Shown piece after piece: positions 28,150 through 34,032 of a DNA stretch of 64,000 nucleotides. The stretch spans positions 7,241,224-7,305,223 of the forward strand of contig NZ_JADWYI010000001.1 of assembly GCF_016904885.1 (NCBI RefSeq). The letters are read 5' to 3'. Both the position numbers and the translations under genes were made by a program. The notes beneath the pieces are model-generated. The model ran no database searches. It was given only the letters and a program-made list of their open reading frames with translations, and had not been told where the DNA came from. Origin of the DNA: [Archangium] primigenium. GTDB lineage: Bacteria; Myxococcota; Myxococcia; Myxococcales; Myxococcaceae. Position 1 is the stretch's first letter. Every line of letters starts with the position of its first letter.

Positions 28150-28290
28150 CCTACCAGAACAACCCCGCCGTCGCGGTCTCTCTCACATAGCCGGGAGGCG
28201 CCCTCGCCGCCGCCCCGACGCGGCCCCGGGAAAACCCCGTCTACCAGTGAACCCGGCGGCGCGAGGGCCCTCGCGGGGCCTCCCGAGGCC

Positions 28291-29382
28291 ATGCGAAAGG
28301 AAGGAACCATGACCGCGTCCTTCCGACCCCTCCCCTTCCTCTCCGAGGCGCGTGCCGAGCAGGCGGCCGGGCCCCGGCTGCGCGCCCTGCGCCAGGCGGC
28401 CCAGCGGGCACGCGAGGCCTTCACGTCCGAGGGCGCCGCCACCGCCCTGGCCACGTGTGACCTCGTCTCCTTCCCCTACCCCACCGTGTTCGCCTTCAGC
28501 GGCGCGGCGCGCTCGCCCGCGCCCTACGTCATGGTGCGGCACCGGATGCAGGTGGTGCGCTTCCAGCAGGAGGGCACCGAGCGCGTGCTGCTCTTCAACC
28601 CGAGCGACTACGAGCGCGGCCACGAGGCACCCTTTTTCAAGGCGCTGCGCGAGAAGTACGGCACCTTCGTCACCACCCAGGTGATGACGCGGCGGCACGG
28701 CACCGTGCAGGCGCACCTGGAGGCCCTGGGCCTCACGCCCGAGGACGTGGACTACCTCGCCTTCGATCACCTGAAGGCCCAGGACGTCCGGCGCTGGCTC
28801 GGAGGGGACGGCCAGCCGGCCTACTTCCCCCGGGCGCGGCTCCTGGTGCAGCGCGCCGAGTGGGACGCCGTGCGCTGCCCCCATCCCCTGGAGCGCGTCT
28901 GGTACGTGCCCGAGGGCACCGGGGGCGTGCCTCCGGAGCGGGTGGAATTGCTGTCGGGGGACACCTGGCTCGGCCAGGGCGTGGCGCTGCTGTCCACGCC
29001 GGGCCACAGCCCGGGCAACATGTCGCTCGCGGTGGCCACCGCCGACGAGGTGTTCGTCATGAGCGAGAACGGGGTCGCCACCGAGAGCTACACCCCCCTG
29101 CAGTCCACCATCCCGGGGGTGCGCACCTTCGCCGAGCAGATGGGCTGGGAGGTGGTGCTCAACGGCAACACGCGCGAGAACTCCCTGGAGCAGTACTCGT
29201 CGATGATCGTGGAGAAGGTGTTCGCGGGCCGCGCGCGGGCGGACGGAGGCTTCGTGAACGTGCACCCCTCCTCGCTGCTCACCCGCGCGGTGATGGCGCC
29301 GGGCCTGGCCCCCACGCTCACCCTGCCCCCGCCCACGTCTGGCGCCTTCACCCCGGCCGCCGCCTCCCGCCACGCGGCGTGA
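28291..29382 (+). CDS. Hypothetical protein (possible metallo-hydrolase-like fold; has a TPGHSPGN motif but no clear HxHxDH)
   Basis: Composition is natural. An alternative start is MTASF at 28309. Confidence 0.55.
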   Translation: MRKEGTMTASFRPLPFLSEARAEQAAGPRLRALRQAAQRAREAFTSEGAATALATCDLVSFPYPTVFAFSGAARSPAPYVMVRHRMQVVRFQQEGTERVLLFNPSDYERGHEAPFFKALREKYGTFVTTQVMTRRHGTVQAHLEALGLTPEDVDYLAFDHLKAQDVRRWLGGDGQPAYFPRARLLVQRAEWDAVRCPHPLERVWYVPEGTGGVPPERVELLSGDTWLGQGVALLSTPGHSPGNMSLAVATADEVFVMSENGVATESYTPLQSTIPGVRTFAEQMGWEVVLNGNTRENSLEQYSSMIVEKVFAGRARADGGFVNVHPSSLLTRAVMAPGLAPTLTLPPPTSGAFTPAAASRHAA

Positions 29383-29399
29383 GGCCCGGTGCGCCTCGG

Positions 29400-29951
29400 C
29401 TACACGGCACAGGACCCGGGCACGTAACGCTGCTCGGTCCATGCGAGCCAGAGGTCCCGCGACTGGACGTTGCCGACATGGATGCCATTGGCGGGGTCCT
29501 GCGGGTCGAAGAACAGGTACTCCCCCTTGTCCAGCGCCAGGCCCAGCGCCGCCACCTTCCCCGCCCTCCCCGCGCCCGCCGGGTCCACGTAATAGTCTAT
29601 CTGCTCGACCCGGGCGGACTCCCTCCCGCTCGGCAACAACGTCCTCAATAGGGACATCGCCCCAAAGACATCATCGGGGTCGACCTCGAAAGCGCTCTCC
29701 ATCCGAGCCACCCGCTCCATCTGGAGACCCGAGTAGCCGTCGACGACCTTGAGGCGCAGCAGCACCCGACCCAGCTCGAGGTAGACCTCATCCCACATGG
29801 GATGGAATTGAGCGAATCGACGCAGTGGTTTGACGTCCCCCGAAAAACCGCTTCCATCGTCCACGAACCCCGTGACGACCAGGCCCTCGAGTTGCGCCTC
29901 CGCCAAGAGGGCCCGGAGCTCTTCCACGGACACCTTCACGCTGTCTTGCAT
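29400..29951 (-). CDS. Hypothetical protein (183 aa) in a lower-GC islet
   Basis: Composition is natural. Local GC is about 57-60%, against about 69% for the surrounding sequence. Confidence 0.5.
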   Translation of the reverse strand: MQDSVKVSVEELRALLAEAQLEGLVVTGFVDDGSGFSGDVKPLRRFAQFHPMWDEVYLELGRVLLRLKVVDGYSGLQMERVARMESAFEVDPDDVFGAMSLLRTLLPSGRESARVEQIDYYVDPAGAGRAGKVAALGLALDKGEYLFFDPQDPANGIHVGNVQSRDLWLAWTEQRYVPGSCAV

Positions 29952-33137: not shown

Positions 33138-33360
33138 GGCCGGGCTCCGGGGGGTGGGGGGGGAGGAACGTGCTCCCCTCCATTGCGAAGCCCATGCCGC
33201 CCGCCCCGCCCCGGCCCAGGAGGGGCACGGGCCCGGAATGGGGCACCCGCCCGCGCCAGAACGGGTCAGAGGTGGACCGACATGGCGCGGTCCTCGGGCA
33301 GGCGAGGAGACAGGCCCCGGGCCCACGCGGCCGTGTGGCTTCCGGAGCCCTTGTGGTTAT

Positions 33361-34020
33361 ATGGCCCCAGGCATGACGACCGGATCTCCAGAAGGCCCTT
33401 CGCCGCAGTGGAAGGACATCCACCAGTCCGTCCTGGCGTCGCTTGACGCGCTGCATTCCGCCACGAACTGGCTCGCCACCGCCGCCACGGCGGGCATCGA
33501 GCCCATCTTCGAGCGCGTCCTGCAGCACGTGTGCGAGCCCCTCGGCGTCACCCCCGAGGCGTACATCGAGGTCATCACCCAGGACGCGGGCATGCGGCGC
33601 GACGTGCAGAAGCGCCTGTCGCGACTGATGGAGAACCCGAAGCTGCAGGCACTGCGCCGCGACGCCCAGCGCCGCGAGGCCGAGCACCAGCTGCACGTGC
33701 TGCACTACATGCTCTCCGGGAAGAAGCCGCCGGACTGGGTGTGGTCGGCCATCGACGACGAGCAGCGCGAGCAGCTCCAGGAGGCGGCCGAGTCCGGCGA
33801 GGAGCGCAACGACGCGCTGCTGCCGCGCGTGCACGCCGCCCTCACCAAGCTCGACACGACGCCCGCCGCCTACGGGCGGTGCGAGGACTGCAAGGCCGCC
33901 ATCCCCCTGGAGCGCCTGCAGCTCGTGCCGTGGGCGGAGTGCTGCGCGGCGTGCCAGCGCAAGCGCGAGGGCGTGCCGGACGATCAGCCCGAGCCCGAGG
34001 TGCGCGTCACGCACTTCTGA
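33361..34020 (+). CDS. DksA/TraR-family C4-type zinc-finger protein
   Basis: A C-terminal CEDCKAAIPLERLQLVPWAECCAACQ four-Cys zinc finger is preceded by a coiled-coil region. Confidence 0.7.
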   Translation: MAPGMTTGSPEGPSPQWKDIHQSVLASLDALHSATNWLATAATAGIEPIFERVLQHVCEPLGVTPEAYIEVITQDAGMRRDVQKRLSRLMENPKLQALRRDAQRREAEHQLHVLHYMLSGKKPPDWVWSAIDDEQREQLQEAAESGEERNDALLPRVHAALTKLDTTPAAYGRCEDCKAAIPLERLQLVPWAECCAACQRKREGVPDDQPEPEVRVTHF

Positions 34021-34032
34021 GCGCGCGGGCGC

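Follow-up and report, generated by a model that had tools for sequence, protein, structure and literature searches.

A probably old separation of ruvA and ruvB in [Archangium] primigenium and relatives frames a hotspot of gene turnover that houses a major vault protein gene

Does the gap between ruvA and ruvB in [Archangium] primigenium record a recent insertion into a repair operon, or is it an older feature of the lineage? The two genes are adjacent in most bacteria. In the 64,000-nucleotide (nt) stretch studied here (contig NZ_JADWYI010000001.1, positions 7,241,224 to 7,305,223; the whole stretch is called the window), both are on the minus strand, 5,883 bp apart (28150-34032), and the six genes between them include genes on the opposite strand, so the adjacency that defines a canonical ruvAB operon is lacking. 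The initial annotation described this block as one accessory insertion carrying a gene for a major vault protein (MVP) homolog, a DksA/TraR-type zinc-finger gene, three small lower-GC genes, and a plus-strand gene. The spacing of about 5.9 kb and the gene inventory held up: Pfam confirmed RuvA, RuvB, and RuvC as well as MVP, the DksA/TraR zinc finger, and DUF7660, and an analysis of reading frames by GC content at third codon positions (GC3) supported exactly six intervening genes. The origin of the block was a different matter. The ruv genes were very probably split into two transcription units long ago, across the whole family, and the space between the units became a hotspot of gene turnover.

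To place the window among its relatives, we anchored 80 loci of different species on RuvA, with 10-kb flanks, and mapped all genes of the window onto them. ruvB was seen downstream of ruvA in 32 loci and was separated from it in 30 of these; over the 32 loci, the gap measured between 30 and 8,476 bp (median, 3.0 kb). The two loci with adjacent genes, L062 and L068, come from distant myxobacterial metagenome-assembled genomes (MAGs). Another 22 loci had at least 9 kb of downstream sequence (9-10 kb) with no ruvB in it, and the remaining 26 were too short downstream to place the gene. The order yebC-ruvC-ruvA, described at the outset as conventional, was kept in nearly all 80 loci. At the other end of the gap, a gene of the metallo-beta-lactamase (MBL) fold, hyp363, was present in 30 of the 32 loci, always beside ruvB and divergent from it. 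A gene for a 496-aa hypothetical protein followed ruvB in 29, including L068, where ruvA and ruvB adjoin. This gene had been taken for a gain by ruvB in the present lineage, which its family-wide presence contradicts; its translational coupling to ruvB, by a GTGA overlap, is plain from the coordinates. The chromosome of Melittangium boletus (L081) has exactly the gene order of the window. From these comparisons, the split of ruvA and ruvB appears to be old and ancestral to the family, not the product of a fresh insertion.

The content of the gap is far less stable than its ends. Depending on the genus, one finds there an ATP-grasp gene, a matrixin or histidine kinase gene, a gene for a repeat protein of the ELWxxDGT type, or one for a dehydrogenase of the medium-chain dehydrogenase/reductase (MDR) type. 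The gaps of Archangium and Vitiosangium hold the ATP-grasp gene, a conserved gene of ~227 aa, the matrixin, the histidine kinase, and others. Cystobacter, Archangium, and Vitiosangium encode orthologs of the 219-aa DksA-like protein beside ruvA. Myxococcus and Corallococcus have a repeat protein of ~500 aa in that place instead; the DksA-like gene appears to be a conserved resident common to Archangiaceae. An ancestral arrangement had been expected to show the same separation and the same intervening genes in all relatives. The separation is indeed family-wide, but the genes in the middle vary.

Base composition also divided the block. The 43 window genes supported by GC3 had a mean GC3 of 0.929 (standard deviation, 0.044). 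MVP (0.963), hyp363 (0.953), and the DksA-like gene (0.945) were host-like, whereas the three small genes, namely, h180 (0.790; z = -3.2), h183 (0.837; z = -2.1), and a gene of the DUF7660 family (0.864; z = -1.5), were low. These three also had the lowest codon-adaptation scores of the 43 genes (h180, z = -2.8). Their overall GC content, first put at 57-60%, was measured at 64.1-68.2%, with 62.8% in the lowest 500-nt interval and a window mean of 70.5%. Identity to M. boletus was 93-95% for the trio and 98-100% for housekeeping genes and MVP. Within the block, atypical composition was confined to positions 29400-30842; only ~1.5 kb, the three small genes, shows a foreign or fast-evolving signature.

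No trace of a mobile element accompanied this signature. Neither tRNA nor tmRNA genes occur anywhere in the 64 kb, Pfam showed no integrase, recombinase, or transposase domain in the six gap genes, and no long direct or inverted repeats flank the block. The check for integrase or tRNA remnants at the flanks, proposed at the outset, thus came out negative. The intergenic spacers measure 9-223 bp and thus leave no room for remnants of mobile genes. MVP and h183 gave no plasmid matches, Rfam gave no match in 27000-36500, and PADLOC assigned none of seven genes to a defense system. The block therefore shows none of the features of integrase islands: a recombinase, a tRNA or repeats, atypical composition throughout, or absence of the whole block from relatives with an intact target.

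It is extremely improbable, given this record, that this lineage had an intact ruvAB operon into which horizontal transfer recently placed a single accessory island of ~5.9 kb. Such an event would agree with the adjacency usual in bacteria and seen in the two distant MAGs, and with the presence in the block of an unusual MVP gene and three lower-GC genes. It conflicts, however, with the family-wide occurrence of the separation, of hyp363, and of the 496-aa partner, with the DksA-like gene common to Archangiaceae, with the host-like composition of MVP, hyp363, and the DksA-like gene, with the lack of insertion marks, and with the different phylogenetic distributions of the layers of the gap. 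What remains of the insertion proposal is a variable, partly foreign-looking middle; the break itself, hyp363, the DksA-like gene, and the 496-aa partner appear to be ancestral.

The features of the locus are collected in Table 1. Among the gene starts, those of MVP, the DksA-like gene, the DUF7660 gene, and ruvB were revised by comparison with orthologs or gene calls. For MVP, comparison with orthologs favored the GTG at 33137 (757 aa) over the longest open reading frame (ORF) of 820 aa. The longest ruvB ORF extends to 28149; the likely start is the ATG at 28125, in accord with the conserved MAKRK in the alignment and with the 343-aa call in M. boletus. Elsewhere in the window, the GC3 filter marked two long plus-strand ORFs of ~2,021 and ~2,070 aa (45763-57928; GC3, 0.88).

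Table 1. Genes and sequence elements of the ruv locus, in window coordinates
Feature	Position	Strand	Remarks
yebC-ruvC-ruvA operon	34033..36053	-	Pfam RuvA_N, HHH_5, RuvA_C, RuvC
yebC	35304-36053	-	identity taken from precomputed annotation of L081 (M. boletus)
ruvC	34641-35213	-	Pfam RuvC
ruvA	34033-34644	-	Pfam RuvA_N, HHH_5, RuvA_C; 4-nt overlap with ruvC
DksA/TraR-type C4 zinc-finger gene	33361..34020	+	219 aa; convergent with ruvA, divergent from MVP
Upstream element of MVP	33153..33300	-	conserved among MVP loci
Sigma-54-type -24/-12 box GGCATGGGCTTCGCA	33184..33198	-	47 nt 5' of MVP start codon
MVP homolog	30864..33137	-	757 aa; GTG start preceded by GGAG
DUF7660 gene	30579..30830	-	83 aa; Pfam DUF7660, E 6.6e-32
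h180	29961..30503	-	small gene, lineage-restricted; most atypical composition in window
h183	29400..29951	-	small gene, atypical composition
hyp363, MBL-fold lactonase-like gene	28291..29382	+	363 aa; divergent from ruvB; alternative start 28309 gives 357 aa
Extended -10-like motif TGGTAGGGT	28148..28156	-	upstream of ruvB; candidate promoter
ruvB	27094..28125	-	RuvB_N, AAA_lid_4, RuvB_C, E 1.6e-75; 343 aa
496-aa hypothetical gene	25607..27097	-	GC3 0.96; GTG start overlaps ruvB stop (GTGA)

How might ruvB be expressed at a distance from ruvA? The motif TGGTAGGGT upstream of ruvB occurs just once in the 64-kb window, where chance would give 0.08 matches. An alignment of ruvB upstream regions showed it to be kept across Archangiaceae, with the form TGTATAGGG in Myxococcus and Corallococcus. 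This conservation fits a unit of ruvB and the 496-aa gene that has its own promoter, for which TGGTAGGGT is the candidate. The function of RuvAB is presumably unaffected by the split, since the proteins assemble in trans.

The steady neighbors of ruvB offered few hints of function. The 496-aa protein had no match in Pfam, NCBIfam, PADLOC, or sequences of the Protein Data Bank (PDB). The resemblance of hyp363 to N-acyl-homoserine lactone (AHL) lactonases was weak (NCBIfam E = 1.7e-10, far under the cutoffs; AiiA in the PDB, E = 1.5e-7). By eye, without alignment, hyp363 reads LAFDHLKAQD where the HxHxDH metal-binding motif of the MBL fold might be expected; if this reading is correct, the protein may be a noncanonical or inactive member of the fold. 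In several genomes, hyp363 is paired with the MDR-type dehydrogenase. The DksA-like protein has a C4 zinc finger, matched by the Pfam family zf-dskA_traR (E = 2.5e-10; 40.6 bits versus a cutoff of 24.9). It fell under the cutoff of all NCBIfam DksA and TraR models, and its N-terminal ~140 residues had no significant family match in Pfam or NCBIfam.

Some enzymes of the MBL fold process nucleic acids, and factors of the DksA type have a role in transcription under stress. One may therefore ask whether RuvABC has partners in recombination, repair, or a stress response among the MBL-fold, 496-aa, and DksA-like proteins, or even in MVP. We consider such a functional cluster quite unlikely. The general roles of the MBL-fold and DksA-type proteins would be compatible with it, as would the persistence of hyp363 and the translationally coupled 496-aa gene beside ruvB over a wide phylogenetic range. 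However, hyp363 is closest, and weakly so, to lactonases rather than nucleases, its pairing with the MDR dehydrogenase suggests small-molecule metabolism, the 496-aa protein has no recognizable domain, and the locus has no MVP in many relatives, with the same being true of the DksA-like gene and of the three small genes.

The variable part of the gap, which we call the slot, lies between the DksA-like gene and hyp363 (approximately 29383-33330) and differs even between close relatives. MVP, DUF7660, h180, and h183 occupy it in both the window and M. boletus. In L090 and L091 (RuvA identity, 95%), it holds a homolog of h180 only, and in Cystobacter fuscus (92%), it is an empty 150-bp spacer. 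The slot of Vitiosangium (86%) carries MVP after two extra genes. That of L084 (93%) contains MVP, a 100-aa gene, VgrG, a 443-aa gene, a 1,348-aa Rhs protein, and a low-GC tail. In the region L084:12770-20921, VgrG, the 443-aa gene, and the Rhs protein make up a complete low-GC3 cassette of a type VI secretion system (T6SS), and the Rhs protein carries the C-terminal motif VVDGHHRLAASKMAGL. An uncalled ORF of ~140 aa, immunity-like (GFDAWRLHVF), was seen 3' of the Rhs gene, in the tail of 54% GC.

We asked whether MVP is an old resident of the slot or a captured cassette. It occurs with the same orientation and order (dksA, MVP, hyp363) in three lineages. Some relatives with no MVP in the slot appear to retain pieces of the element that precedes it, as judged by ungapped scores compared with those of 300 random queries. 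In L008, an Archangium MAG without MVP at this locus, only the 5' half of the upstream element was found at the syntenic position, with a conserved 211-aa gene directly preceding it and unrelated genes of low GC following; its score against the Vitiosangium element was 35, a value reached by none of the 300 random queries (15.7 ± 1.6). The spacer of C. fuscus Cbf 10 matched positions 33296-33239 of the window with 72% identity over 58 nt (score, 26; random, 16.8 ± 1.7; 0 of 300). When relatives were ranked by identity, the values for MVP and RuvA were 99 and 99%, 93 and 93%, 89 and 86%, and 85-87 and 69-73%, so that the order for MVP roughly tracks that for RuvA. On the basis of the synteny in three lineages, the partial elements, the host-like composition, and this ranking, MVP is probably an old resident of the slot that was lost repeatedly.

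Some results weigh against long residence. In L053 (strain NCWS), the other C. fuscus strain, the scar did not reach significance (41 of 300 random queries scored as well), an independent profile of the MVP element missed the C. fuscus scar, and L090 has none. With the scar weak or missing in C. fuscus and L090, the loss of MVP in these lineages is argued from parsimony. Only RuvA identity was used to judge how the relatives branch. MVP also occurs at unrelated loci, in Corallococcus sp. M7 (L082), L085, L086, and L083, where it is solitary; it can thus relocate, and repeated capture keeps a small probability. As a separate observation, L053 yields broken tblastn matches to ruvA, ruvB, hyp363, and the 496-aa gene where Cbf 10 does not, which suggests frameshift errors in the assembly that may explain its weaker scar signal.

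Repeated capture would mean that, after an old split, a hotspot independently acquired the MVP cassette in Melittangium/L084 and in Vitiosangium, with the partial elements being separate remnants or chance matches. We regard this course of events as unlikely, though it has points in its favor: MVP and its element form a solitary unit at four unrelated loci, cross-genus identity of MVP (85-90%) is high relative to that of RuvA (69-86%), foreign cassettes do enter the slot, as the VgrG-Rhs of L084 shows, and L090 has neither MVP nor a scar despite a RuvA that is 95% identical. Independent captures would, on the other hand, have to produce the same orientation and relative order in three lineages, a strong partial element at the syntenic place in L008, a fully host-like composition, and an MVP identity ranking in rough accord with the RuvA ranking, and at no locus do mobility genes accompany MVP. 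Long residence followed by repeated loss remains our preferred account of MVP.

The protein itself is a major vault protein by its domains (Pfam Vault, Vault_2, Vault_3, Vault_4, and MVP_shoulder) and matches the rat and human MVP structures end to end (E = 1e-137; query residues 8-179 and 113-743 against PDB sequences). It is 99% identical to a 757-aa protein of M. boletus, and homologs with 85-93% identity are found in Vitiosangium, Hyalangium, Archangium, and many members of Corallococcus; eukaryotic MVPs come next, at 36-41%. Identity to Archangium primigenium proteins was 100% for both MVP and the DUF7660 protein, the latter being 95% identical to its M. boletus counterpart. Weak partial matches (27-30%) were seen in three records of uncultured jumbo phages. 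In none of the eight MVP neighborhoods did we see TEP1, PARP4, or a vault RNA partner. Bacterial homologs have been noted in silico in Myxococcales, Cytophagales, and Oscillatoriales (Daly 2013, PMC3762200; Sokolskyi 2019, bioRxiv 10.1101/872010), and a 2026 preprint on TEP1 and vaults contained nothing on the context of bacterial MVP.

The 150-170 nt preceding the MVP start are conserved even at unrelated loci, except in the most distant one, L083. A profile built only from MVP loci that do not adjoin dksA matched the window at 33289-33177 (E = 2e-4), L081 (2e-5), and L084 (3e-15). A seven-sequence profile matched 33300-33153 (E = 2e-21), which is no independent test because the window sequence was in the training set. 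The best-conserved block of the element, GGCAYGNNNNTCGCA, has the -24/-12 geometry of a sigma-54 promoter, and a further stretch of ~60 nt is conserved upstream of this box. Seven of the eight MVP loci have a sigma-54-type box, located 28-47 nt before the start. The window has a single match to the box, GGCATGGGCTTCGCA, with GG at -24 and GC at -12 in canonical spacing, and the 1.29 Mb of RuvA-anchored loci have two, one of them at MVP of Vitiosangium. We infer that MVP would depend on sigma-54 and be controlled by an activator, and that the gene and its regulatory region move together.

A cluster of RNA repair genes, which includes the sigma-54 activator RtcR, lies 2.4 kb beyond yebC (38415-43855). 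It comprises rtcA (38415-39434), rtcB (39601-40893), a 357-aa gene without annotation, and the RtcR gene (42236-43855); rtcB is preceded by a sigma-54-type box at 40921-40906. MVP has this cluster nearby in the window, in M. boletus, and in L084; in other genera, MVP is located elsewhere. RtcR was considered as the activator of MVP and rejected, as the element profile had no second match in the window and the rtcB promoter is dissimilar.

We also weighed a broader role for such a unit. MVP could be a self-contained, sigma-54-controlled cassette of enhancer-like element, -24/-12 box, and gene, long kept and moved or lost as a whole, and its toxin/immunity neighbors (DUF7660 here, VgrG-Rhs in L084, and DUF5953, DUF6310, and a VgrG3-like protein in Corallococcus) could then place vaults in interbacterial conflict or stress defense. 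This idea is speculative and has only a slim chance of being correct. In a weaker form, the location of MVP inside the ruv locus could reflect a link to the DNA damage response. In L082, MVP is found amid conflict-type genes (7201-8226 and 16183-17796) for DUF5953, DUF6310, and a protein with a LysM/VgrG3-like C-terminal domain.

The trio at the hyp363 end of the slot includes DUF7660, a family for which we found no mention in the papers searched, no toxin or immunity annotation in Pfam, and no PDB sequence match. Its context was examined at 80 metagenomic loci with 6-kb flanks. The upstream neighbor was on the same strand in 34 of 40 cases and often abutted or overlapped the start of DUF7660. 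Several of these neighbors were giant ORFs that reached the edge of the flank, with lengths of up to at least 1,990 aa; DUF637 was found in three and RHS repeats in one. A shared C-terminal domain of ~95 aa ended 16 of 25 upstream neighbors, and a profile search placed this domain or a remnant of it directly 5' of DUF7660 in 50 of the 80 loci, as well as in L089 and a Ralstonia megaplasmid. One homolog is part of a small-gene array that follows a 2,672-aa two-partner secretion (TPS)/filamentous-hemagglutinin protein. The same profile search did not find the domain in the window, M. boletus, or L084. DUF7660 is thus predicted to be an immunity-type gene of polymorphic toxins: the family holds the position of an immunity gene, but the copy in the window does not and would be a toxin-less orphan.

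The putative toxin domain has the consensus VRFSQxSI...IPPIRLVE..G.LFTLDNRRLEAFRRAG...WKFTT.N.G.SIRVRG (alignment A10). It ends CdiA- or Rhs-like ORFs (for example, at L093:5681-5983, L114:5668-5970, and L161:5202-5504), and DUF7660 is always next. Searches of Pfam and PDB sequences gave no match to the domain; a likeness to ParB/sulfiredoxin was limited to the level of motifs, found no support in these searches, and was dropped.

The other two genes of the trio are rare. h183 has 53 relatives and a confidently predicted fold (predicted local distance difference test [pLDDT] score, 95.7) with a moderate resemblance to NFACT-N domains. No Pfam domain was found in 34 members of the family, a profile scan of neighborhoods turned up no relatives, and three multidomain matches were discarded as low-complexity noise. 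h180 has only five homologs in 5.8 billion proteins, all of them myxobacterial or metagenomic, and its AlphaFold2 (AF2) model is poor (pLDDT, 36). At an unrelated locus of Archangium gephyra (L092:7852-8345), a homolog of h180 annotated as 122 aa is spread over two frames (two tblastn segments) and is likely a frameshifted pseudogene.

Taken together, these results can be accounted for as follows. In Myxococcaceae and Archangiaceae, yebC-ruvC-ruvA forms one unit, and ruvB with the 496-aa gene, which has its own conserved promoter-like motif and is divergent from the MBL-fold gene, forms a second. Between ruvA and the MBL-fold gene, the content changes in nearly every genus. Three layers can be proposed for the window: the DksA/TraR-type gene common to Archangiaceae; the host-like MVP with its own element, presumably an old resident deleted in some relatives; and three lower-GC3, fast-evolving small genes, including the orphan DUF7660. 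Toxin/immunity cassettes would come and go at the trio end of the slot, as suggested by the complete VgrG-Rhs cassette that the sister lineage L084 has there.

Other observations count against parts of this account. The 22 loci in which ruvB was out of reach and the 26 uninformative ones limit the survey from which the family-wide split is drawn. The presence of h180 in the same slot of L090 means that low GC3 need not indicate recent transfer. The link of the trio to toxins and immunity comes solely from DUF7660 and L084. Both the sigma-54-type box and the ruvB promoter motif are read from sequence only.

If the account is correct, the split is the normal state in this family, and a departure from the gene order of Escherichia coli should not be readily taken for an insertion. 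The upstream element of MVP, with its sigma-54-type box, provides a handle for finding out which activator turns on a bacterial vault protein and under what conditions. DUF7660 could receive an immunity-type annotation, as the partner of a toxin C-terminal domain without a Pfam match. The slot also documents stepwise gain and loss of genes, including deletion scars, in very large myxobacterial genomes.

The locus can be compared with several known systems. In the E. coli type of organization, ruvAB is an SOS-regulated operon and yebC-ruvC is separate, and many other bacteria have ruvCAB clusters. The myxobacterial locus resembles both in encoding three Ruv proteins with complete domain sets, in the linkage of yebC and ruvC, and in the coupling of ruvC to ruvA; it differs in that ruvB is uncoupled from ruvA and has, family-wide, its own conserved motif and a 496-aa partner. 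The vault repeats, shoulder, cap-helix, and cap-ring of eukaryotic MVP align end to end with the bacterial protein, which is ~100 residues (about two repeats) shorter and whose gene is preceded by the conserved element with a sigma-54-type box. As with the orphan immunity genes of contact-dependent growth inhibition (CDI), Rhs, and T6SS loci, DUF7660 homologs follow the toxin domain of giant DUF637/RHS ORFs, and copies with toxin remnants or without a toxin also exist; unlike in those systems, neutralization by DUF7660 is predicted from gene context, and the window has no toxin. Finally, the locus is like the integrase-less islets and hotspots that lie between conserved core genes: its flanks are conserved (ruvA with the DksA-like gene, and hyp363 with ruvB), its content varies among close relatives, and part of that content is atypical in composition and related to toxin/immunity systems. 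It differs from them in that older and younger layers take the place of a single element, with no mobility genes, tRNA, or repeats. The locus is, in this comparison, an ordinary gene-turnover hotspot of large myxobacterial genomes.

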